A stretch of DNA of 64,000 bases, from NCBI GenBank assembly GCA_016198585.1, contig JACQII010000016.1, positions 88,932 to 152,931 of the forward strand. The letters run 5' to 3'. This stretch comes from Candidatus Aenigmatarchaeota archaeon (lineage in GTDB: Archaea > Aenigmatarchaeota > Aenigmatarchaeia > QMZP01). This document shows positions 1 to 42,885 of this stretch, in pieces. The notes under the pieces were generated by a model, which saw only the letters and a list, made by a program, of their open reading frames with translations, was not told where the DNA came from and did no database searches. Position numbers and translations under genes: made by a program. Every line of letters starts with the position of its first letter. Positions within the stretch are counted from its first letter, which is position 1.

Positions 1-862
1 CGAGGAAGAATCGCTGGACTCGTTCCCGCTGGGCCTTGCCCCAGGTTGCCCCAAGGACCTGGTACTCCTCTCCTGGCCGATAGCGATCGATCCGAGAGAA
101 GAAGAGTCTCGACACGTCCTCGAAACCGTGGTAGACCGTGACGTCCTGATCCCAGAGCACGCGGAAATAACCCCGGAAGCTGTCGGCGATTTGGCGGCTC
201 CCGATAAGGAAGGCTAGCGGTCGGTCTCCCCAGAGCACGATCGCGACGCTCTCACCGAAGACGTGCACTTCCCCTGGGGTGGAGAACTCCCGCGGAACGG
301 TCTTCACCTCGGTGAGGGGAAGCGAACGGTTCACCGAGATGAGATGACGGGCGCCTTCGTTGAGAATGATCCGGCCACGAACCCCCTTCCGTGCTCGCCG
401 CCGGCTCCACCCCTCGAGGAAGCGGCTGAACGGTTCGGCGACATCCGCGGCCACGAATACGATGTGCTCGTCCCCGGGTTGGAGTGCCCTGAGCATCATC
501 TCGAAGACCGTCCTCATCCCCTGTTCACCTTCGTAGACGGTGGCCTCGTGCCGCACCTTTGCAAGCTCCCTTTTCACTTGGAGGTGGGGAAGGAGCGAGC
601 GCAGATGATTCTCCCTCTCGCGCATCACATCAAGAAGGACTTCAGGGTCTGCAGCCTCGAAGTAACGCTTCTTTCCCTTGATGACCGAACTCGCAAGTCC
701 CTTCTCGATCAGCCGCTGGAGGAGGGCGTAGGCAGTAGCCCGGTGGAAACCTGTTTTCTTGATCACCGGACCGGCAGTCGTGGAGCCAGCCTCAAGGAGG
801 GCGAGGTAAGTCGCCGCTTCTCCCGCAGAGAGGCCGGCGTCCACCAAGGCGGACGTGTCCAT
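1..862 (-). CDS. TrmB-family transcriptional regulator, 3'-truncated by the window edge. The minus-strand ATG is at 860-862.
   Basis: My reverse-complement translation begins MDTSALVDAGLSAGEAATYLALLEAGSTTAGPVIKKTGFHRATAYALLQRLIEKGL... This is an N-terminal wHTH with the same architecture as the paralogs at 5663 and 24676. No stop is seen before position 1, which explains its absence from the ORF track. The upstream part of plus ORF 263..1939 is its antisense shadow. Confidence 0.65.
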   Translation of the reverse strand, partial: MDTSALVDAGLSAGEAATYLALLEAGSTTAGPVIKKTGFHRATAYALLQRLIEKGLASSVIKGKKRYFEAADPEVLLDVMRERENHLRSLLPHLQVKRELAKVRHEATVYEGEQGMRTVFEMMLRALQPGDEHIVFVAADVAEPFSRFLEGWSRRRARKGVRGRIILNEGARHLISVNRSLPLTEVKTVPREFSTPGEVHVFGESVAIVLWGDRPLAFLIGSRQIADSFRGYFRVLWDQDVTVYHGFEDVSRLFFSRIDRYRPGEEYQVLGATWGKAQRERVQRFFL

Positions 863-5610: not shown

Positions 5611-5645
5611 GTGGTGCTGTACAAATACCACGCTTTTATATGCCC
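5611..5645. promoter_or_regulatory. Divergent promoter region with the palindrome GTGGT-N11-ACCAC (5611-5631) and the TATA box 'CGCTTTTATATGCCC' (5632-5645) for the TrmB gene
   Basis: The TATA box lies about 20 nt before the ATG at 5663 (leaderless). A second AT-rich box, 'TTTTAATAATAT' (5599-5610), is suitably placed for the minus-strand gene starting at 5565. The palindrome sits between the two boxes. Confidence 0.45.
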
Positions 5646-5662: not shown

Positions 5663-6403
5663 ATGGCGCTGGCGATCCTGCGGAAGATCGGGCTGTCGGA
5701 AGGCGAGGCGACCGTCTACACCGCCCTCCTCGAGGCAGGCCGCTCGCCGCTGAGCAGGATCCACGAGAGGACCGGCATCGAGCGGCGCAACATCTACGAC
5801 ATCCTGAACAAGTTGATCGAGCGCGGACTCGTCACGTACGTGACCGAGAACCGGCGGCGCTTCTTCCAAGCCGGTCACCCGAGCACGCTGGTCGGCTACC
5901 TCGATGCGAAAGGGGACGAGCTGGAGCGGACCAAGCGCGCTGTGCAGAAGGAGCTTCCCAGCCTGGTGGGGACGTTCCTCGCGAAACGGCCAGCCGTCTC
6001 GGCAGAAATCTTCCGCGGCCACGACGGGATGAAGGCGGCCTGGGAAGACATCCTCCGCGAGAAGGAAATCCGGTTCATTGGGTCGGGCCGGTACGTACCG
6101 AAGACCCTCCCGCGCTTCTTCCGCAGCTGGAACGCGCGCCGGATCGCGCGGCGCATGAAGCTCTTCAACCTGGTCCGGGCCGAGCTCCGGAAGGAGATCA
6201 GGAAGCCTTACCCGCTCGAGTACATCCGCTACCTGCCACCCGAATTCAGCGGCAACCCTGCCGTCGTCGCTATCTACGGCAACAAGACCACCCTGCTGCT
6301 CCTCGGGACTGAGTTCTTCGCCTTCGTGATCGAGAGCAAGGAGCTCGCCGACAACTATCGGGATTACTTTCGCTTTTTATGGTCAAATGTCGCAAAAAGG
6401 TAG
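5663..6403 (+). CDS. TrmB-family transcriptional regulator
   Basis: MALAILRKIGLSEGEATVYTALLEAGRSPLSRIHERTGIERRNIYDILNKLIERGLVTY is an N-terminal wHTH plus C-terminal sensor domain. It is a paralog of the regulators at 1..862 and 24676. Confidence 0.75.
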   Translation: MALAILRKIGLSEGEATVYTALLEAGRSPLSRIHERTGIERRNIYDILNKLIERGLVTYVTENRRRFFQAGHPSTLVGYLDAKGDELERTKRAVQKELPSLVGTFLAKRPAVSAEIFRGHDGMKAAWEDILREKEIRFIGSGRYVPKTLPRFFRSWNARRIARRMKLFNLVRAELRKEIRKPYPLEYIRYLPPEFSGNPAVVAIYGNKTTLLLLGTEFFAFVIESKELADNYRDYFRFLWSNVAKR

Positions 6404-6415
6404 CAGGAGCCTGAG

Positions 6416-8137
6416 GTGAGAGACATGAAGATGCGTTCCCCGATCCTGGTCGCGCTCGGCCACGTCGACCATGGGAAGACCACGCTGCTGGACAAGATTA
6501 GGGGAAGCGACGTCGCCCGGACTGAACCCGGCCTCATCACCCAATACATCTCCGCCAGCTACATCCCCACCAACACGATCCGCCAGCGATGCGGGCCGCT
6601 GCTCGACCGGTTGGGCATCACCCTCAACATCCCGGGCATCCTCTGGATGGACTCCCCAGGACACGAGGCGTTCACGACCCTCCGCAAGCGAGGCGGCGCG
6701 ATCGCCGACTTCGCCGTCCTGGTGGTCGACCTGATGGAGGGATTCCAGCCCCAGACCCGGGAGAGCGTGAACTTCCTCCGCCAGTTCAAGACCCCCTTCT
6801 GCGTCGCACTCACCAAGATCGACCGCCTGGTGGGCTGGGTGCCCCGGCCGGGGGAGCCGTTCGTGGCCTCGTTCGAGGACCAGTCCTCCCGGACAAAGGA
6901 GGCGTTCGATGACAAGTTCTACCGGATCATCGGCGAGCTCGGGAGGGAAGGGTTCTCTGCCGAGCGGTTCGACCGGGTGGAGGACTTCACCAAGCAGATC
7001 GCCATTGTCCCGCTCTCCGGCACGACCGGCGAAGGCGTCCCTGATCTGCTCGTCATCATCGCTGGCATCGCCCAGCGGTTCCTCAAGGGCAGCCTCGAAG
7101 TCCAGCCGGGGAAGGGCAAGGGCACGGTCCTGGAGGTGAAAGAGGTCGTCGGCCTGGGCTCGACCATCGACGCGATCATCTACGACGGCTCCGTGCGCAG
7201 GGGAGACTTCCTGGTGGTCGGCGGCAACGACCTGGTCCGCTCGCGCGTCAAGGCGCTGCTCGTGCCGGCTCCGCTGAAGGAGCTGCGCATGGAGAAAGGC
7301 TTCCAGCCAGCAGATGAAATCGCGGCCGCAGCCGGCGTCAGGATCGCTGGCCCGGGCCTGGAATTCGTGCTCGCGGGCTCGCCCTTCCGCGTCGTCAAGT
7401 CCGAGAAGGAGGTCACGGCCGCCGAGGATGAAGTCAGGGAAGAGGTCGAGGAGGTCGAATTCGCCTCTGCCCAGGACGGCGCCATCCTCCGGGCCGACAC
7501 CCTCGGGAGCCTCGAAGCCCTGATCAAGACCCTGCAGCCGGTCGTCCCGATCCGGAAGGCCGGGGTCGGGACCGTGACCCGGGCCGACGTACTCGAGGCC
7601 AAGACCCTGGGCCGCCCGATCTTCGCCTTCGGGACCAAGCGGCTCCCGGACATCGAGAAGTTCGCCAAGGACAACCAGGTCGCCCTGTTCGCCTCGGACA
7701 TCATCTACGCCATGGTCGAGGACTACCAGACCTGGGAGCTCGGCGCGAAAGAGCGCTCGCTGCAGCACATCCTGGATTCGGTCCCCCGGCCAGGCCAGGT
7801 GGCGGTCCTCAGGGGCTTCCTCTTCCGGCAGAAGGACCCTGCAGTGTTCGGGGTCGAGGTCGTGAAAGGCACGATCAGGCCTGGCGTCGTCCTGGTGAAC
7901 AAGGGGAAGAAGATCGGCGAGGTCAAGGAGATCCAGGACCAGGGAGAGTCCCGTCCAGAGGCCGTCAAGGGCCAACGCATCGCGATTTCCATGCCCGACG
8001 TGGTCTTCGGCAAGCAGGTCAACGAAGGCAACGTCCTCGAAGTCTTCCTTTCGGAGGCGACGCGCGAGGCCCTGGAGAAGGCCCGCAGCAAGCTGCGGCT
8101 GGACGAGCGCGAGCTGCTCGATGCGGCGGGATTTTAA
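6416..8137 (+). CDS. infB: Translation initiation factor aIF5B (IF2/eIF5B homolog)
   Basis: The GTPase G1 motif VALGHVDHGKTTLLDKIRG is present, with beta-barrel domains over about 570 aa. The start may be an ATG a few codons downstream. Confidence 0.85.
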   Translation: MRDMKMRSPILVALGHVDHGKTTLLDKIRGSDVARTEPGLITQYISASYIPTNTIRQRCGPLLDRLGITLNIPGILWMDSPGHEAFTTLRKRGGAIADFAVLVVDLMEGFQPQTRESVNFLRQFKTPFCVALTKIDRLVGWVPRPGEPFVASFEDQSSRTKEAFDDKFYRIIGELGREGFSAERFDRVEDFTKQIAIVPLSGTTGEGVPDLLVIIAGIAQRFLKGSLEVQPGKGKGTVLEVKEVVGLGSTIDAIIYDGSVRRGDFLVVGGNDLVRSRVKALLVPAPLKELRMEKGFQPADEIAAAAGVRIAGPGLEFVLAGSPFRVVKSEKEVTAAEDEVREEVEEVEFASAQDGAILRADTLGSLEALIKTLQPVVPIRKAGVGTVTRADVLEAKTLGRPIFAFGTKRLPDIEKFAKDNQVALFASDIIYAMVEDYQTWELGAKERSLQHILDSVPRPGQVAVLRGFLFRQKDPAVFGVEVVKGTIRPGVVLVNKGKKIGEVKEIQDQGESRPEAVKGQRIAISMPDVVFGKQVNEGNVLEVFLSEATREALEKARSKLRLDERELLDAAGF

Positions 8138-8159
8138 AGTGGCCGGCCCTAAAGATCTC

Positions 8160-8507
8160 ATGGGCATCCACTTCTACCAACGGACCGATCGCCACCGCGA
8201 CCAGCTCACGGGCCGCGAGCGCGAGGTCCAGCACGCAGTAGAGCGGGCCGCAGCCGGGATCGCGAAGCCGGTCGTGCGCGTCCACGCCAGCCACGTCCAC
8301 GTCTTCGCCTCGGTCCCGGAAGCGCGGGAACGGTTCTTCGCCAACCGCGTGCGGGCTGCACTGGCCGGCCTCCCTGATGTCCGGTGGGACGCCCACCACT
8401 ACCTCTTCCCGGTCGCCTCCCTGCGGCCGCGCGACCTGGACCGCCTGCTCGAGGGGATGCACCAGAACCGGTATGCGGACGCTTCTGGACTGCGGAGACG
8501 GCCATGA
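8160..8507 (+). CDS. Hypothetical protein (His-rich, 115 aa)
   Basis: A TATA-like 'GATTTTAAAGTGG' at 8130-8142 spans the infB stop codon. ATG 8160 lies about 20 nt downstream, so the transcript is leaderless. The stop overlaps the PAP2 start (ATGA at 8504). No family is recognised. Confidence 0.4.
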   Translation: MGIHFYQRTDRHRDQLTGREREVQHAVERAAAGIAKPVVRVHASHVHVFASVPEARERFFANRVRAALAGLPDVRWDAHHYLFPVASLRPRDLDRLLEGMHQNRYADASGLRRRP

Positions 8508-9004
8508 CCTTCCATCTCAACCCCTGGTTTCTCGTCACGCTCTTGGGTGAACCTGACCTCTGGCTGGTGATCGCGGTCGGGCTGGGCGTCTTCTCGCTCG
8601 TCTGGCGGCGGCTGCGGCCCAACCACCGCCTCCACGTCGTGCTCGAAGTCCTGATCCTCTCCCTCCTCATCGTCCTCGGCATCGTCTTCGCCACCAAGCA
8701 GGTGACCCAGATCGACCGGCCCTGCGGCCCGGAGAACCCGTACTGTCTCGAAGATTCTTCCTTCCCGTCGGGCCATGCGGCCAGCATCTTCGCCGCCTTC
8801 ACTGTCCTGCTGGCCTTCCTCCCGCGGCGCTGGCTGCCGTTGCTGGCCGTCCCCCTCCTGGTCGCGGCTTCCCGGGTGGCACTGGGCGTCCACACCTGGC
8901 TCGATGTGGCTGCTGGCGCTGTCCTCGGCATCCTGGTCGCCCTGGGCGTGATCGCCTCCTTCCGGAAGGCCGGCCGGCTGCAGAAATGGCCGTGGGAGCG
9001 CTAG
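8504..9004 (+). CDS. PAP2-superfamily membrane phosphatase (phosphatidic acid / undecaprenyl-PP phosphatase-like)
   Basis: TM helices are present along with the PAP2 motifs PSGH and SRVALGVHTWLDV (SRx5Hx3D). Confidence 0.7.
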   Translation: MTFHLNPWFLVTLLGEPDLWLVIAVGLGVFSLVWRRLRPNHRLHVVLEVLILSLLIVLGIVFATKQVTQIDRPCGPENPYCLEDSSFPSGHAASIFAAFTVLLAFLPRRWLPLLAVPLLVAASRVALGVHTWLDVAAGAVLGILVALGVIASFRKAGRLQKWPWER

Positions 9005-9082
9005 CTACTGCTGCTGGTTCACTTCAGAAACCGGTGGCAGTAAACATATATCCTTGAATATAGCTATTGCAGCATCGCAAGG

Positions 9083-9119
9083 TATTTAAACCTTAAATGT
9101 CACCACTTGTCAGTGATAT
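9083..9119 (+). promoter_or_regulatory. TATA box 'TATTTAAA' (9083-9090) plus the palindrome ATGTCAC-N9-GTGATAT (9097-9119), immediately upstream of ATG 9123
   Basis: The palindrome lies between the TATA box and the start codon, a classic repressor-operator position. The half-site resembles the Thermococcales glycolytic motif TATCAC-N5-GTGATA bound by TrmB-family regulators. Confidence 0.5.
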
Positions 9120-9122
9120 CCT

Positions 9123-9359
9123 ATGACGCGACGTGATGACGAGCTGGTCAATCGGGTGGTCGAGAAGGTCCTGAAGGACTTCGACTTCGAGATTGATGAC
9201 ATGCTCGAAGCCAACCAGGAGGAAGTTGTCCAGGCTATCAAGGACTCGATCCTGGAGCACCTGGATCAGGAGCCTCCGCACGTGGACTGGATCCAGCTGG
9301 TTGACCTCGACGAGGCCGAAGCGCACAAGAACAAGAACGGCGACTTCCTGGCTGCGTAA
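9123..9359 (+). CDS. Small acidic hypothetical protein (78 aa)
   Basis: MTRRDDELVNRVVEKVLKDFDFEIDDMLEANQEEVVQAIKDSILEHL... is strongly acidic. It has its own TATA box and operator, and is followed by a T-run and a hairpin. Confidence 0.5.
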   Translation: MTRRDDELVNRVVEKVLKDFDFEIDDMLEANQEEVVQAIKDSILEHLDQEPPHVDWIQLVDLDEAEAHKNKNGDFLAA

Positions 9360-9365
9360 GCACCT

Positions 9366-9419
9366 TTCCCTTTTTCCCTCGTGGGATTTCTCCTCCCCAA
9401 AGGGACGGCCGTCCCTTTG
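9366..9419 (+). terminator. T-stretch (9366-9375) and a perfect hairpin CAAAGGGACGG/CCGTCCCTTTG (9398-9419) after the 78-aa gene
   Basis: An 11-bp inverted repeat is seen directly. Archaeal terminators are often T-rich runs. A function as an attenuator or terminator is inferred. Confidence 0.35.
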
Positions 9420-9433
9420 AGGGAACCGATAAG

Positions 9434-9470
9434 TATTTAAATACTCTTATGTCACTATTAGGTAGTGACA
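9434..9470 (+). promoter_or_regulatory. Second copy of the motif: TATA 'TATTTAAA' (9434-9441) plus the perfect palindrome ATGTCAC-N9-GTGACAT (9449-9470), upstream of ATG 9475
   Basis: The architecture and spacing match the element at 9083-9119. Confidence 0.5.
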
Positions 9471-9474
9471 TACT

Positions 9475-9567
9475 ATGTCTGAAGACCTTTGGGAAAAGCT
9501 CTTGAAGAAGAACCGGGAAGACCTGTATCGGATGGAGATCGCGGACGAGGAGGTCCCGAATGATTGA
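9475..9567 (+). CDS. Tiny acidic ORF (30 aa) overlapping the start of the downstream gene
   Basis: MSEDLWEKLLKKNREDLYRMEIADEEVPND. Its stop at 9565-9567 overlaps ATG 9560 of the next gene. It shares acidic 'EI-D-EEV' character with the 78-aa protein. It may be a leader peptide or micro-protein. Confidence 0.25.
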   Translation: MSEDLWEKLLKKNREDLYRMEIADEEVPND

Positions 9568-11014
9568 TACGCTGACCGCAGCCTGGGAACAGAGGCTCTT
9601 CGAAGCAGACGGCCTCGGCCGCTACGGCATCACCCCCGAGGAGGTGGTCGCCGCGGCCGCAGAGAAGCTCGGCGCGCTGGCTAGTGGCCGGCAGCCCTAC
9701 GTCGTTGACGAGGACCTGCGCGAGCGGGAAGGCCGGGACGGCAAGTACCAGAGCCGGGTCACCTACCTCAGCGGATCGGCCCACCGGAATTCCGCCCTGC
9801 GGAACGATACGGTCACGCACGAGGCGATGCACGGCCTCTTCGAGGACCGCAACCCCGGCCAGGAAGACCATCCCGAGGCCTACATCCACCAGATGACCGG
9901 CATCGGGCTGCGCGGGAACCTCAGCCACCCAGACCCCGAGGTCCGGCGCGAGGCCGCGCGCGGCTACCGTTCCTACCGGCAGCGGTTCAGCGATCCCCGC
10001 TACCGAGAATCCCAGGGCGTCTCCGATATTGAGCACTCAGGCGGCTGGACCGACTCCTTGAACTACAGCAGAAGCTACGGGCTTGATGCCCACGACGCCA
10101 AGGACGAGAAGGGCCAAGGAAAGGGGAGGAAGGATCACGATACCGGTCACGGCGCTGCGCACGATGCCCACGGGAAGGCGGGGAACCAGGCCGCGGCTGC
10201 CGCGGCGACAGGCAGATACGAGCCGAAGAGTCTCCAAGACATCCTCATCGCGGGTGGCCGCGAGTTTGTGGGCGCGATAGCCCTCGGCGTACAGGACGGT
10301 GCCATTCGCGCGCTGCGGGAAAGCGGGAAGCCGGGCCAGTACCTGGCCGCGCTGATCGGGAACTACACCTACGCCGGCGCCCTCGACCACACCAAGCCCG
10401 ACACCATCGTCGCCGTCAAGAAGCGGGACATTCCGGGGTACTCTGTCTCGCTCGTCAAGACGCACGGCACGTACACCCTGACGGCAGATGACGTGACGGT
10501 GACCAACGGGACCATCACCCTCCCTGAAGGGCAGGGGTTCGAGCTCATTGGAGGGGACTGGGAGAAGGTCTACGACTACAACCTCTTCGAGAAGCTCGGT
10601 TCCGCCCAGACGTTCCCGGGCTTCCGCGAGATGCCGGAGCGGGAGATCCGGCGCCTGCTGGTCGAGGACACGGTGCGCTACCTCGTCAACCGGCCCTCTG
10701 ATTCGCAGCGGGTGGACGAACAAGGCCGGGTGATCCGGGTCGTGCGGCCGAAGAACTTCGACCTCGGGCTCGGCACCTACATCACCGCCCAGGGGCTCAT
10801 CGCCGAGCCGATCCTCGGCGGGTACAATCGTGCGGTCAAGATAGCGGAGAACGTGGTGACTGACGTGCTCCCCATGGTCGGGATTGCGCCGAAGCCGGTA
10901 GTCGGGAGGATGGAAGCGACCCGCGAGGCCTTCGTCAGGGAACTGACCGACCGGACGATTCGGACCGGCGCCGCGCTCTTCGACCTCGATTATCCCCTCA
11001 GGCTCGCGGCGTAG
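9560..11014 (+). CDS. Hypothetical protein with an HExxH (zincin-like) motif and a His/Ala-rich linker
   Basis: THEAMHGLFE carries the HEAMH zinc-metallopeptidase signature. A low-complexity segment HDTGHGAAHDAHGKAGNQAAAAAATG separates the N- and C-terminal domains. No named family is recognised. Confidence 0.5.
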   Translation: MIDTLTAAWEQRLFEADGLGRYGITPEEVVAAAAEKLGALASGRQPYVVDEDLREREGRDGKYQSRVTYLSGSAHRNSALRNDTVTHEAMHGLFEDRNPGQEDHPEAYIHQMTGIGLRGNLSHPDPEVRREAARGYRSYRQRFSDPRYRESQGVSDIEHSGGWTDSLNYSRSYGLDAHDAKDEKGQGKGRKDHDTGHGAAHDAHGKAGNQAAAAAATGRYEPKSLQDILIAGGREFVGAIALGVQDGAIRALRESGKPGQYLAALIGNYTYAGALDHTKPDTIVAVKKRDIPGYSVSLVKTHGTYTLTADDVTVTNGTITLPEGQGFELIGGDWEKVYDYNLFEKLGSAQTFPGFREMPEREIRRLLVEDTVRYLVNRPSDSQRVDEQGRVIRVVRPKNFDLGLGTYITAQGLIAEPILGGYNRAVKIAENVVTDVLPMVGIAPKPVVGRMEATREAFVRELTDRTIRTGAALFDLDYPLRLAA

Positions 11015-11071
11015 GCCCAGGAGCAGGCGCGCCTCGCAGCCCATTTAAGCTTCCCCCACCAAACATAGTGC

Positions 11072-11842
11072 ATGGTCGCGTTCGTGGACACGCTCATCGA
11101 CGTCCTCTGCCAGCAGAACACGGCATCGCAGTGCGGCCAGTTCGTCGCTGCCTATCCGGACGTCCCCCAGCAAGTCCTCTGGCTGGTCTTCTTCCCCTCG
11201 GTCTTCCTGATCCTCCTGATCTACCTGCTCTCGGAGACCGTCATCAAGAACATCGAGGGCGAAGGCAAGGGAAAGATCCAGTTCCTCGTGGCCATCGCCA
11301 TTTACCTGTTCATCGTCGTCCAAGGCTGGTATTACATCACGCTCAGCTTCAGCAAGGTCTGGTTCATCACCATCATCATCCTCACCGGCTTCTGGGTCCT
11401 GGTCCGCCGCATCGGCTGGACCAGCGGCTGGGGCAGCGGAAAGGGTGGCGGAGGAGGGGGAGGCGGCGGTGGCGGAGGAGGCGGGGGTAGCCACGGGTAC
11501 GCGGCCAGCCCGGGCGGCTACGTGGAAAAGCGGCTGCGAGCCAAGGCTTCAGGAACCGAGCGGTCCCTGGAGGACAAGATCCACAACCGCATCCGGACCA
11601 TGAGCTCCCTGCGGAACCGGATCAAGCACGGCGGTGACGCCCGGGGTATCGCCGCCCTGGTGCAGGAGTTCCGGGCCGAACGGAAACTGGCCGAGGACGA
11701 GATGCACGAACTCCAGGACTTGATGAACTTCGGACCGCTCAAGATCTCGTCGAAGAAGATCGACACCTGGTGGCGCGAGATCGAGCAGCTGACGCGCGAC
11801 ATTGAGACGGCTGACATCGAGCGCGAGCGCCGGGCGGCGTAG
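11072..11842 (+). CDS. Membrane protein with 3 TM helices, a 17-Gly linker and a C-terminal coiled-coil
   Basis: TM segments LWLVFFPSVFLILLIYLL, FLVAIAIYLFIVVQGWYYI and VWFITIIILTGFWVLV are followed by GKGGGGGGGGGGGGGGGGS and then a charged helical tail. Confidence 0.5.
   Translation: MVAFVDTLIDVLCQQNTASQCGQFVAAYPDVPQQVLWLVFFPSVFLILLIYLLSETVIKNIEGEGKGKIQFLVAIAIYLFIVVQGWYYITLSFSKVWFITIIILTGFWVLVRRIGWTSGWGSGKGGGGGGGGGGGGGGGSHGYAASPGGYVEKRLRAKASGTERSLEDKIHNRIRTMSSLRNRIKHGGDARGIAALVQEFRAERKLAEDEMHELQDLMNFGPLKISSKKIDTWWREIEQLTRDIETADIERERRAA
11438..11491 (+). repeat. GGN codon repeat encoding 17 consecutive glycines
   Basis: The run of GGN codons is visible directly in the sequence. The opposite strand gives a spurious Ala/Pro-rich ORF. 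Confidence 0.8.
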
Positions 11843-24617: not shown

Positions 24618-24675
24618 ACTGATGGGGACGCAGCATAGCTTTTATATCTTTGTCGTCAAGAAGATAACGACAATT

Positions 24676-25398
24676 ATGGAAAATGGGCTGCGCGCGGCCG
24701 GACTGACGGAGCGGGAGGCGAAGGTCTACCTCGCGCTGCTCCGGCGGGGGCCTTCCGCCGTGCACGAGATCGCGGAGGAAGCCGGGATCTACCGGACGTA
24801 CGCATACGAGGTCCTCCGTTCGCTCCGACGGAAAGGCCTGGTCTCCTCCCTCGCAAAGGATGGGAGGCGCTGTGTTGAAGCCGCTGACCCGGAGAAACTG
24901 CTGAGCGCCATGAAGGAGCGGGAAGCCCAGGTGCGGGCAGCCATGCCCGCCCTGCGGCAACTCTCCCGCTCTCTCCCCCAGAAGCCCCGCATCGCGGTCT
25001 TCGAAGGGAAGGAGGGGCTGAGAACGATCCTCGACGACATCATCCGGACCGGCCAGGACATCATGGTCATCGGTTCCACCGCGCGGCAGTTGGAGGTCCT
25101 CCACCACTCCTTCCCGGCCTTCATACGGCAGCGGGTGAAGGCCGGCCTGCAGACGAGGGTCATCACGGAGCGATCGCGCCTCACCCTCGCGAAGCAAAGG
25201 CAAGGCCGCGCCGAACTGCGGGAGGTGCGCTTCTTCCCCCGTGACACCGACTTCCCCGTCGCCGTCAACATCTACGGGAGGAAGGTGGCGATGCTTGCGA
25301 TGGGCAGGAACCCTGTCGGCATCATCATCGAGGACGAGGGGATCGCGAAGGCCCACGCATTCATGTTCAGCATGCTCTGGGGGAGCGCAGAGAGGTAG
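24676..25398 (+). CDS. TrmB-family transcriptional regulator (third paralog)
   Basis: MENGLRAAGLTEREAKVYLALLRRGPSAVHEIAEEAGIYRTYAYEVLRSLRRKGLV is a wHTH with a C-terminal sensor domain. A TATA-like 'GCTTTTATATCTTT' lies at 24638-24651, about 25 nt upstream. Confidence 0.75.
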   Translation: MENGLRAAGLTEREAKVYLALLRRGPSAVHEIAEEAGIYRTYAYEVLRSLRRKGLVSSLAKDGRRCVEAADPEKLLSAMKEREAQVRAAMPALRQLSRSLPQKPRIAVFEGKEGLRTILDDIIRTGQDIMVIGSTARQLEVLHHSFPAFIRQRVKAGLQTRVITERSRLTLAKQRQGRAELREVRFFPRDTDFPVAVNIYGRKVAMLAMGRNPVGIIIEDEGIAKAHAFMFSMLWGSAER

Positions 25399-26916: not shown

Positions 26917-28179
26917 ATGGTCGTAAGTAGTAATAAGCACCTCTGGACTTTACCTATCTTGTTCTTCTTTCTAGTAATACCAACCGCACAAGGAAGTTGG
27001 GTTGGTGTTCATCCTTCTGGGAATTTTAGTGTCGATTTTCCGTTCTGGGAAGCGGTCAGAATAGTACAGTGGAAGGATGAAAGCACTCTAGACAGGACCA
27101 ATTATCAAGATTTGTTGGTTGCTGCAGAATTCGAACTACAAATTAATAGGAACTTATCAGGAGGGAAGGTAAACATAACATATTACACGTTGGAGGCTTC
27201 AAGGAATAATGACGCTACTAATTTTATATCCAAGGTCTGCAGCGACAGATATTGCAATCATACCATTTTTTCTGGGAGTTCAGTATCGATAGGCAGCAAT
27301 ATCTTTACATTTACTCTGCCTATACCTGAGCTGGAATCAGACACCGTTTTTAATGTTTTCATTGAGTACAGAATTCCTAATTTTATCGAGAAGAAAGGAA
27401 TATACTATGTAGCAAAGTTTAACGCCGTGTGCCAGACTATCGATTTCTGCCCACCTGAGCATACGATGATGCGAACATTCATAATACCATACGAAGATAC
27501 AATCATAGAGAAATTGATACCCGAGAGTATCGAGTCGGCTACCTTTCATGAGAAAGATGAGCAGTACCTGACATTTTCAGAAAGTTATAAAGAGATATGG
27601 TTTTCAAGAATCTCAGAAACCAATTTTTGGTTGCCTTTCCTTTGGCAGTTCTTGGGGGCAGTATTGGGCGCCTTTCTAGCTATTTTGGCAGCCGAAAGTT
27701 GGAAATTCGTTAGAAGAAGAGGATCAAAGATACCGCAGGAGAAAGTCGCAAGAAAGAGTACAGATATGAGAAATCCGAGGGTTAGTAGAAACGACGATAA
27801 ACGTTTTTTGATAAAAGTATATCAGAATAATAGAGATTATCACGCAACGATGGCAACTCAAGGTCTTACAATACTACTTACACTTGCAACATTAATTGTT
27901 GCCATTCTTACTCTCATCAATGTTGCTTATTCATCTGTCGTTAGCCCATGGCTAAGCACATGGTTCCCTATCATGAATCTTGTCATCGTTGCTGCCATTA
28001 TAATAACTTGGATATATGTCTACAAGGTCAGAATTTCGCCTGATAAACGGAGTGCATCGAACTTTCATCTACAGTATAAAATATTTTTATCAGAACTCTA
28101 CCCTCGTCTTTTTCAGCTGTCAGAGAATGACAACAAAAGGATATATGACAGGGAGTTGCGAAAAAAACCAAACTTCTAA
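26917..28179 (+). CDS. Low-GC (~38-40% GC) membrane/secreted hypothetical protein (420 aa)
   Basis: A signal peptide TLPILFFFLVIPTAQG is present with internal TM helices and many N-x-S/T sequons. The composition contrasts strongly with the ~63% GC background. The gene ends 62 nt from the tRNA-Gly 3' end. Confidence 0.5.
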   Translation: MVVSSNKHLWTLPILFFFLVIPTAQGSWVGVHPSGNFSVDFPFWEAVRIVQWKDESTLDRTNYQDLLVAAEFELQINRNLSGGKVNITYYTLEASRNNDATNFISKVCSDRYCNHTIFSGSSVSIGSNIFTFTLPIPELESDTVFNVFIEYRIPNFIEKKGIYYVAKFNAVCQTIDFCPPEHTMMRTFIIPYEDTIIEKLIPESIESATFHEKDEQYLTFSESYKEIWFSRISETNFWLPFLWQFLGAVLGAFLAILAAESWKFVRRRGSKIPQEKVARKSTDMRNPRVSRNDDKRFLIKVYQNNRDYHATMATQGLTILLTLATLIVAILTLINVAYSSVVSPWLSTWFPIMNLVIVAAIIITWIYVYKVRISPDKRSASNFHLQYKIFLSELYPRLFQLSENDNKRIYDRELRKKPNF

Positions 28180-28240
28180 TCCGATCATTCAAGCCGAGGA
28201 TCAATTGTTGAACTTGTCTTGATGTGGTGGTTCGAATGGA

Positions 28241-28354
28241 TGCGTCGGGCGAGAGTCGAACTCGCGTTACAGCCTATTTGCCCGGCGTTTCTGGGTGCAG
28301 CCTCTTTTGAAGAGGTGCTGGCAAGGCCGCGTACTACCACTATACTACCGACGC
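28241..28354 (-). tRNA. tRNA-Gly(GCC) with a 43-nt intron after position 37
   Basis: The acceptor stem is GCGTCGG/CCGACGC. The D-arm is GTAT-AGTGGTA-GTAC. The anticodon stem CGGCC/GGCTG has the loop TTGCCA with anticodon GCC. The T-arm is GCGAG-TTCGACT-CTCGC. The discriminator is A, and CCA is not encoded. The 43-nt insertion 3' of the anticodon matches the canonical archaeal intron position. Confidence 0.7.
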
Positions 28355-42327: not shown

Positions 42328-42885
42328 ATGGACGAAACCGTGACCCTGGACCGGCAGACGTTCAAAGTCCTGGCGTCCGAGACGCGGGTGGGGATGCTCA
42401 AGCTGCTCGCCCAGCGACGGATGACGCTGACCGAACTCGCGACCAGGCTCGGTCTGGCCCCGTCGAGCGTCAAGGAGCACCTGGACGCCTTAGTCGCTTC
42501 CGGACTCATCGCCCAGGCCGACGAGGGGCACAAGTGGAAGTACTATGCGCTCACCGAAAAGGGCAAGGACATCCTCCACCCCGCGGAGAAGAGGGTCTTC
42601 ATCCTGCTCGGGCTCGGGCTCGTGATTGGGATCGCCAGCCTGGCCTCGCTCGCCGCGAACCTCCCCGCCAGCGAACGTTTTGCCGCGACCGATCTCGTCG
42701 AGATCCCGCAGGTGGCGGCCCCTGCCACCACTCTGCCGGGTGCACTCCCTGAAGATGCTCCTGATTCTGCGCCCTTCCCCACCACGACACTGAGCATCGC
42801 CCTGGCGGCGCTGATCATAGCCGGAGGATGCGCCGGCTACCTCCTGGGGATACGGCGCGGCGTGCGGTTCGGGATGTCCGCGTAA
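42328..42885 (+). CDS. ArsR-family wHTH regulator with a C-terminal membrane anchor
   Basis: The HTH is VLASETRVGMLKLLAQRRMTLTELATRLGLAPSSVKEHL. TM segments are VFILLGLGLVIGIASLASLAA and LSIALAALIIAGGCAGYLL. Confidence 0.6.
   Translation: MDETVTLDRQTFKVLASETRVGMLKLLAQRRMTLTELATRLGLAPSSVKEHLDALVASGLIAQADEGHKWKYYALTEKGKDILHPAEKRVFILLGLGLVIGIASLASLAANLPASERFAATDLVEIPQVAAPATTLPGALPEDAPDSAPFPTTTLSIALAALIIAGGCAGYLLGIRRGVRFGMSA

Follow-up and report, generated by a model that had tools for sequence, protein, structure and literature searches.

A conserved operator-like palindrome at the promoters of a small acidic protein and a putative zincin in Candidatus Aenigmarchaeota

What does a palindrome do that stands between TATA box and start codon at two consecutive archaeal promoters, and what kind of genes does it precede? 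The question was raised by a locus in a 64,000-nucleotide stretch of the 183-kb contig JACQII010000016.1 (hereafter the window), which has a GC content of 64% and belongs to a metagenome-assembled genome of Candidatus Aenigmarchaeota (DPANN archaea) from groundwater. The two promoters, P1 and P2, precede the gene of an acidic protein of 78 amino acids (aa) and a micro-ORF (open reading frame) of 30 aa, respectively. The micro-ORF runs into the gene of a 484-aa protein with an HExxH motif, and a 256-aa membrane protein with its own promoter, P3, follows. With moderate confidence, the locus is interpreted as a lineage-specific three-promoter module, in which the palindromes at P1 and P2 would be repressor operators gating the 78-aa protein, the micro-ORF and a putative zincin, with a likely membrane partner made from P3. 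The regulatory design is a familiar one; the proteins that it drives are unfamiliar and the archaeal group is poorly known.

At P1, on the forward strand, the TATA box TATTTAAA was read from the sequence at 9083-9090, 30 nt from the ATG of the 78-aa ORF at 9123, and a pattern match placed the palindrome ATGTCAC-cacttgtca-GTGATAT at 9097-9119. P2, on the same strand, has the TATA box TATTTAAATA at 9434-9443 (TATTTAAA at 9434-9441) with an A-rich stretch resembling a TFB recognition element (BRE) upstream, the palindrome ATGTCAC-tattaggta-GTGACAT at 9449-9471 and the ATG of the 30-aa ORF at 9475. Each copy therefore sits between TATA box and ATG, the position at which archaeal repressors act, as the original prediction had pointed out. 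The element consists of 7-bp arms around a 9-bp spacer and can be extended to a 9+3+9 form, the arms at P2 reaching to TGTCACTAT and gTAGTGACA. Of the layout first described for the two promoters, all elements were found; the distances had to be corrected, since TATA box and palindrome are separated by N6/N7 instead of N7/8 and palindrome and ATG by N3 in both cases. Both small ORFs are acidic as had been stated, with an isoelectric point (pI) of 4.2 for the 78-aa product and 4.4 for the 30-aa product.

Motif scans of this genome covered the 64-kb window. Allowing up to two mismatches, the pattern ATGTCAC-N9-GTGAYAT gave six strand-matches at three sites, with 0.17 expected. A weight matrix trained solely on sites of other genomes ranked position 9450 (P2, 33.2 bits) and position 9098 (P1, 21.5 bits) first, followed by position 938 with 13.0 bits and a next score of 6.7 bits; the 95th percentile of the null, taken as the best score per block-shuffled sequence, was 17.1 bits. 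By pattern count and matrix null together, chance occurrence of the P1 and P2 palindromes was ruled out.

The palindrome was also found in relatives. With the consensus TGTCACTAT-N3-ATAGTGACA it recurs at the orthologous promoters on 11 or more related contigs, whose GC content ranges from 39 to 62%. This conservation speaks for a functional shared cis-element, as had been supposed, and dismisses a local duplication within one genome as its sole origin. In all homologue loci, TATTTAAATA, 5-8 bases and TGTCAC-N9-GTGACA precede the HExxH gene or its micro-ORF; the palindrome starts 6-8 bp past the TATA box, ends 0-3 bp (sometimes about 25 bp) ahead of the first start codon, and keeps a spacer of 9 bp between the TCAC and GTGA arms at every site. 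In an alignment of 12 P2-type loci, TGTCACT, AGTGA and the TTTA.A of the TATA box were invariant in all 12 promoters, which drive proteins only about 20-37% identical. The promoters of the 78-aa gene in relatives carry a weaker version that retains the core TCAC-N9-GTGA, and the perfect motif was, in the fetched relatives, confined to promoters of HExxH-family genes. Even in locus L013 (loci of relatives are referred to by such numbers), where 5 kb separate the HExxH gene from the 78-aa gene, the palindrome still stands in front of the former. A scan of genome contigs returned two loci only. A metagenome scan for the combination of TATA box and palindrome gave 47 matches, about the number expected by chance, and most of these were chance or unrelated hits, among them bacterial terminators and a repeat from the human gut; five were archaeal promoters with the same extended sequence. 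The promoters of L021 and L033 lie directly ahead of an HExxH gene and its membrane-protein partner, that of L036 just downstream of an HExxH homologue, and those of L016 and L035 precede genes of unassigned family. At L035 (2582-2992) a perfect P2-type promoter with operator is followed by the gene of an unrelated 120-aa protein of unassigned family and then by a NifS-like cysteine desulfurase; judged by its promoter, the 120-aa gene is a possible additional member of the regulon in another lineage.

Further repeats were noticed around these promoters. In relatives, a second and different perfect palindrome, ATATATAACAG(T/C)GTTATATATAT, stands one to three times upstream of the P1 TATA box and is preceded by a conserved TTTTCAAAACCAGTAGCATGCAAA: in L002 (5550-5625), L009 (about 5690-5830, three copies), L008 (about 5830-5945, three copies), L012 (about 5900-5930) and L013 (5782-5845), and in degenerate form in the window (9020-9065). 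It could be the site of a second regulator or another kind of multi-site DNA element. The inverted repeat TATACT-NN-AGTATAGAAAAG, which lies some 20-35 nt ahead of the P2 TATA box, is conserved in L002, L004, L009, L012, L021, L033, L036 and L016. It is similar to the Pyrococcus TrmB site with its TACT...AGTA arms. In its place the window has the sequence AAAGGGACGGCCGTCCCTTT.

The position of the palindrome relative to the transcript was derived from promoter geometry. In most promoters of the window the TATA octamer ends 19-21 nt (the modal distance) before the ATG, as is expected for leaderless mRNAs; at P1 and P2 the distance is 30-31 nt. With the usual archaeal spacing between TATA box and start, transcription is predicted to begin inside the right half-site, which would give a leader of about 10 nt and leave the left arm outside the RNA. 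The leaderless transcripts that had been proposed for P1 and P2 are thus at odds with the TATA-to-ATG distance. A dyad of this size over the predicted start is what is seen with archaeal repressors that block RNA polymerase, and on this ground the palindrome is most likely the operator of a dimeric repressor.

The gene behind P1 (9123-9359, forward strand; G+C content at third codon positions, GC3, 0.80) encodes a product identical to NCBI HY369_05235 and is the best-conserved part of the module. Eight further homologues of 76-81 aa were found, with 58-69% identity and 23 invariant columns, and those with names all belong to Aenigmarchaeota; a metagenome scan with the alignment of this protein gave 600 pattern matches, none of which was confirmed. 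Downstream of the gene (9371-9418, forward strand) follow a T5 tract at 9371-9375 and a perfect GC-rich palindrome of 20 bp, AAAGGGACGGCCGTCCCTTT, at 9399-9418 with a fold energy of -27.9 kcal/mol, which together look like the terminator of the 78-aa gene. In L004 (GCA_016202725.1, 1120-1848) the gene of a 242-aa protein resembling S-adenosylmethionine-dependent methyltransferases is inserted between the 78-aa gene and P2, so P1 and P2 are separable units. In part of the relatives (L004, 757-876; L009, 5868-5999; L013, about 5897-5995) the P1 palindrome is followed by an additional conserved micro-ORF, of 32-43 aa, before the 78-aa gene begins. NLWKWGS is common to L004 and L009 and QEV..[WY]F to L004 and L013; the window lacks this micro-ORF.

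The micro-ORF behind P2, uORF-B (MSEDLWEKLLKKNREDLYRMEIADEEVPND; 9475-9567, forward strand), was also called by an independent gene caller, and overlaps the start of the 484-aa ORF by 8 nt, as the original prediction had noted. Homologues of 26-30 aa ending in [VI]PND* were found in L004, L012 and L008, and a degenerate one of 20 aa in L009, which retains the LY motif alone; this motif shows synonymous codon variation among the homologues. Inside the micro-ORF, 5 nt upstream of the 484-aa start, lies the Shine-Dalgarno-like sequence GGAGGT (9549-9554, forward strand), which may serve the second cistron, and GGAGG(T) is found likewise in L004, L012 and L008. Both small ORFs proved to be conserved as had been expected, the 78-aa ORF strongly and the 30-aa ORF in some relatives. 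Two points stand on the other side for the latter: it is absent in about half of the relatives, among them L002, L013, L021 and L033, and its 3' end overlaps the Shine-Dalgarno sequence and start of the next gene, so that its conservation may be partly at the nucleotide level. Archaeal operons in which a leaderless first cistron is followed by an overlapping, Shine-Dalgarno-dependent second cistron are known. The arrangement at P2 resembles them in that the micro-ORF begins a few nt past the predicted start of transcription without a Shine-Dalgarno sequence and the next gene has GGAGGT and an ATGA-type overlap; it differs in a first cistron of only 20-30 codons, which is partly conserved (LY, [VI]PND) and dispensable in about half of the relatives.

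The 484-aa ORF (9560-11014) encodes a product identical to NCBI HY369_05240. A word-indexed protein search with this sequence returned only the protein itself, and a profile of 13 HExxH-domain sequences likewise retrieved one protein; homologues were recovered by exhaustive phmmer searches, seven of them (weak) for the N-terminal region and one for the C-terminal region. Three parts can be distinguished on the forward strand: an N-terminal zincin-like HExxH domain (residues 1-155; 9560-10024), a low-complexity linker rich in His, Ala, Gly and Lys (residues about 156-232; 10025-10255) and a C-terminal conserved domain (residues about 233-484; 10256-11014) with the motifs FEKxGSAQ and V.DTVR.

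The N-terminal domain was delimited by homologues and by an AlphaFold2 model. The HEAMH motif reported earlier is present at residues 87-91. The seven homologues cover residues ~21-154 with E values from 1.8e-13 to 1e-4; H87, E88 and H91 are invariant in alignments of 13 and of 9 sequences, and E106, G43 and G61 are likewise invariant in the family. The model (predicted local distance difference test score, pLDDT, 87.6; predicted template modelling score 0.84) consists of a backing helix, a sheet of three strands, a long helix with the HExxH motif (78-97) and a next helix (106-122) that starts with E106, a candidate third metal ligand, which is invariant in alignment A4. In size and topology, a domain of about 130 residues with a long HExxH helix after a small sheet, this is like the IrrE/ImmA (M78) and SprT-like zincins; the HExxH-x14-E spacing and the motifs GxKPY, DGKY and LTG are specific to the present family. 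The only Foldseek neighbours with a coherent theme are weak ones among phage proteins, one IrrE-N-like (probability 0.85, TM-score 0.61, root-mean-square deviation 3.3 Å over 82 columns; E at least 0.15). Judged from model and motif, the 484-aa protein probably represents a small zincin of a new kind and is a putative metallopeptidase of an unclassified family.

Several points weigh against this assignment. Foldseek of the model against the PDB gave nothing significant (best E 0.45) and the SprT-like phage neighbour (probability 0.69) is equally non-significant, with E at least 0.15; without a significant structural match, the zincin fold is argued from topology and motif. The family member P0007 reads HENVAH, which fits the 13-sequence alignment by a one-residue gap. 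Against curated peptidase families only sub-threshold matches to Peptidase_M91, Peptidase_M76 and DUF6782 were obtained, in one or two of the 13 members, and the domain has no match in Pfam, NCBIfam or the PDB sequences. IrrE/ImmA proteases are parts of repressor-controlled switches. An adjacent helix-turn-helix repressor gene, as is paired with ImmA/IrrE proteases, was not found beside the module in the window, L002, L004, L009 or L012; L013 alone has a winged helix-turn-helix gene, of 96 aa, upstream.

The linker is modelled with a pLDDT below 50 and is not conserved in homologues. The C-terminal domain was recognised by homology to P0009 (277 aa), which matches residues ~233-466 with 27% identity over 259 columns (E 8e-12) and is a stand-alone gene beside a membrane-protein homologue in another lineage, L005/L006; in L013 a fragment of this domain is a separate gene. 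Since the domain stands alone in two other lineages, the 484-aa protein of the window is a fusion. A 253-aa HEVTH protein of L005 could not be placed in the HExxH family (hhalign probability 0.3), and L005 entered the comparison with its C-terminal domain and its membrane protein alone. Past residue 155 the full-length AlphaFold2 model was unusable, the C-terminal domain being poorly modelled, and the Foldseek matches of the full-length model were noise.

The last gene of the module (11072-11842, forward strand) encodes the 256-aa protein, in which a short N-terminus with a conserved Cys pair, three transmembrane (TM) segments, a linker rich in Gly and a helical tail with many charges can be told apart. 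The three hydrophobic segments and the charged tail agree with the earlier description, in which the Gly run had been given as 17 residues; the longest run is 15 residues (125-139). Orthologues occur in all loci; eight were compared, in which FFPxVF and QGWY are invariant, the Cys pair is kept in most and the Gly-rich linker varies with the lineage. The only family signal was LiaF-TM, matched below threshold in five of the eight orthologues (best E 7.7e-4), the window protein scoring 14.9 bits against a cut-off of 27. The protein is likely the membrane partner of the HExxH protein. Its promoter P3 has the TATA-like box ATTTAAG at 11043-11049 (forward strand), about 20 nt before the ATG and without a palindrome, and the pattern ATTTAARC-N~9-CCAATA-N~8-ATGG is kept in L002, L004, L008, L009 and L012. 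The lack of an operator at this gene counts against common control of all four genes, and with its own palindrome-free promoter it is not part of one tightly coupled transcription unit; of the single regulated module first proposed, the conserved gene set stands and the tight coupling does not. Numerous promoters, in this genome as well as in its relatives, have a CCAATA-like element between TATA box and ATG, some 8-10 nt ahead of the start codon, for example at 11056-11061 and upstream of 32642, 51552 (reverse strand), 50928 (reverse strand) and 56559. It is probably a promoter-proximal or initiator element typical of the lineage.

Several genomes share the gene order aIF5B ... PAP2 phosphatase, 78-aa protein, HExxH protein, membrane protein, convergent Hel308, acylphosphatase and PRPP synthetase. 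The GC3 of the module genes (0.80-0.88) equals that of the rest of the window, which argues against recent acquisition. Between aIF5B and PAP2 lies a further ORF (8121-8507) of about 110-128 aa, found at the same position in L002, L008, L009, L012 and L013 by local search (E 1e-22 to 4e-30) and without a match in Pfam or NCBIfam; the true start of the PAP2 ORF, listed as 8384-9004, is probably further downstream. For the module proteins and several relatives, nothing above threshold was found in Pfam, PHROGs, PADLOC, NCBIfam or the PDB sequences, and the earlier statement that none of the four products belongs to a recognised family holds for these curated collections.

Other explanations of the locus were weighed against the operator reading. 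The palindrome might be an RNA hairpin in the 5' leader that controls translation or stability of the small-ORF mRNAs, and the P2 sequence can indeed fold into an 11-bp stem of -12.3 kcal/mol whose end is 3 nt away from the AUG. However, a leader of only about 10 nt would leave the left arm untranscribed, the stems of P1 and of the third-ranking site at 938 are weak (-5.0 and -5.8 kcal/mol), the variable inner-arm positions of the 12-locus alignment differ without compensation and an Rfam search gave no match, so that a hairpin appears very improbable. A specialised core-promoter or initiator element, for instance one that serves a TFB paralog or marks very strong promoters, is improbable to a lesser degree: the palindrome occupies the place of the generic CCAATA element of the lineage's other promoters, the adjacent BRE/TATA is near-consensus and highly conserved, and the left inner arm (TAT) is better conserved than the right, which may point to a core-promoter role. 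Such an element would hardly be restricted to two or three promoters in 64 kb, and the dyad symmetry of the outer arms is strict and invariant in the 12 loci, from which a dimeric binding protein is expected rather than directional core-promoter contacts. The least probable explanation is a mobile, viral or defence island with the repeated promoter as a duplicated cassette. All four genes are ORFan-like, and small acidic proteins with an HExxH and a membrane protein superficially resemble a lysis or defence cassette; against this, PHROG matches were not significant (all E at least 0.025), PADLOC matched none of the window proteins and, below threshold (E 0.027), the relative P0002 alone, IMG/VR contained no relatives, the GC3 is native and several genomes keep the module at the same chromosomal place, between PAP2 and Hel308.

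If the palindrome is taken as an operator, the TrmB family comes into view. TrmB-family repressors bind a palindromic operator at or after the TATA box and block recruitment of RNA polymerase, and the Thermococcales glycolytic motif (TGM) reads TATCAC-N5-GTGATA (PMC4158304). The claimed likeness to this motif stands for the TCAC/GTGA core and fails for the spacing, N9 instead of N5, and for the targets, which are not sugar genes; with a half-site TGTCAC instead of TATCAC as well, membership in the TGM was rejected. The count of three TrmB paralogs in the window was confirmed by family searches: paralog 1 (2-862, reverse strand, running off the window; Pfam TrmB, 4.2e-12), which is a tentative candidate regulator, paralog 2 (5663-6403) and paralog 3 (24676-25398). 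A reading in which one of them is the repressor, the site a TGM variant and the regulon inclusive of an SsuA-like ABC transporter is tentative and rather unlikely as a whole. It draws on a candidate third operator, TGTCAT-cggatagga-GTGACA at 938-958, which lies between a TATA-like box (917-926) and the ATG at 959 of an SsuA-like (sulfonate/nitrate-type) substrate-binding gene heading an ABC operon. The site repeats the TATA-palindrome-ATG geometry and has the third-best matrix score, and TGTCA-N11-TGACA was matched twice in the window with 0.03 expected; the ABC operon is divergent from paralog 1, the classical TrmB arrangement (PMC4158304). TTGTC...GACAA palindromes were found at the promoters of paralogs 1 and 3 (two matches, 0.19 expected, both there), so reading of TGTC/GACA-type half-sites by the local TrmB family is plausible. 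These palindromes differ, however, from the operator and may be the cognate sites of those paralogs themselves; the third site alone is not significant against the null; and the paralogs match TrmB/TrmBL1 in the DNA-binding domain only, with 26-44 bits against cut-offs of 500-650 (26.9, 25.8 and 43.8 bits on the NCBIfam TrmBL1 equivalog model with its cut-off of 650). For paralog 1, the one scanned against Pfam, the match is limited to the N-terminal TrmB domain. In relatives no TrmB gene is linked to the module, the sole match in the flanks being a fragment in L013, and the gene directly upstream of the palindrome in L013 encodes a 96-aa MarR/ArsR-like winged helix-turn-helix (wHTH) protein. 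The genome of the window has other wHTH proteins too, among them one of 185 aa (42328-42885).

The locus thus shares with the TrmB/TrmBL1 (Tgr) systems the inverted repeat with its TCAC/GTGA core, the site after the TATA box, TrmB-domain proteins nearby and one candidate site that precedes an ABC transporter, with a TrmB gene in divergent orientation. It differs from them in half-site and spacer of the putative operator, in targets of unassigned function and in paralogs that are not TrmB/TrmBL1 orthologues. A TrmB-like paralog is a plausible leading candidate for the repressor, and the case for its involvement is circumstantial. The paralogs' own promoters carry palindromes that are probably autoregulatory sites. 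Paralog 1 and the ABC operon have TTGTCCATATCTGGACGACAA (894-914) between their divergent TATA boxes, paralog 3 has TTGTCGT-N10-ACGACAA (24650-24673) between TATA box and ATG, and paralog 2 has GTGGT-N11-ACCAC (5611-5631) ahead of its TATA box. Nothing relevant on the half-site in archaea came out of a literature search. Phr of Pyrococcus furiosus, a heat-shock repressor, is, like the repressor proposed here, a winged-helix dimer that blocks RNA polymerase recruitment at the palindromes overlapping the transcription starts of a small stress-type regulon. Its operator differs in sequence from the present one and its controlled genes are unrelated; no Phr homologue turned up here, in searches that included no test dedicated to it.

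Elsewhere in the window, an island of 39% GC (26917-28354) in this 64% GC genome holds a 420-aa membrane-type ORF (26917-28179) and an adjoining tRNA of 114 nt (28241-28354, reverse strand), detected by Rfam and missed by ARAGORN, which therefore probably contains an intron. The island may be foreign DNA integrated beside the tRNA.

Returning to the operator reading, the module could work as follows. A dimeric winged-helix repressor, bound to the palindrome after or alongside TBP/TFB, would block recruitment of RNA polymerase until a signal releases it from P1 and P2. P1 would then give a short-leader mRNA for the 78-aa protein, and P2 an mRNA with the 30-aa micro-ORF as first cistron, from which the internal GGAGGT and the 8-nt stop/start overlap would pass ribosomes to the cytoplasmic 484-aa protein. 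The protein with three TM segments, Gly linker and coiled coil would be made from its own promoter P3. It is conceivable, though doubtful, that the locus serves an envelope or stress response of Aenigmarchaeota, possibly related to host contact, in which a divergent TrmB-like or other wHTH repressor with a new operator specificity, TGTCACTAT-N3-ATAGTGACA, gates a new zincin family acting at the membrane with the 3-TM protein, and the co-regulated 78-aa protein and micro-peptides act as modulators (inhibitor, chaperone or anti-repressor).

Almost nothing is known of gene regulation in DPANN archaea, an uncultivated group. The locus offers a defined operator, conserved over a wide GC range, along with a few targets and a few candidate regulators, and brings three or four protein families that Pfam, NCBIfam and the PDB do not contain: the putative zincin domain, its C-terminal partner domain, the 3-TM/coiled-coil protein and the 78-aa protein. 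It also provides comparative evidence for real ORFs of 20-43 codons in this lineage. Should the protease reading fail, a well-supported cis-regulatory element before conserved genes of unassigned function remains; should the stress or envelope response be true, no regulon and operator would have been defined in a DPANN archaeon before this one.

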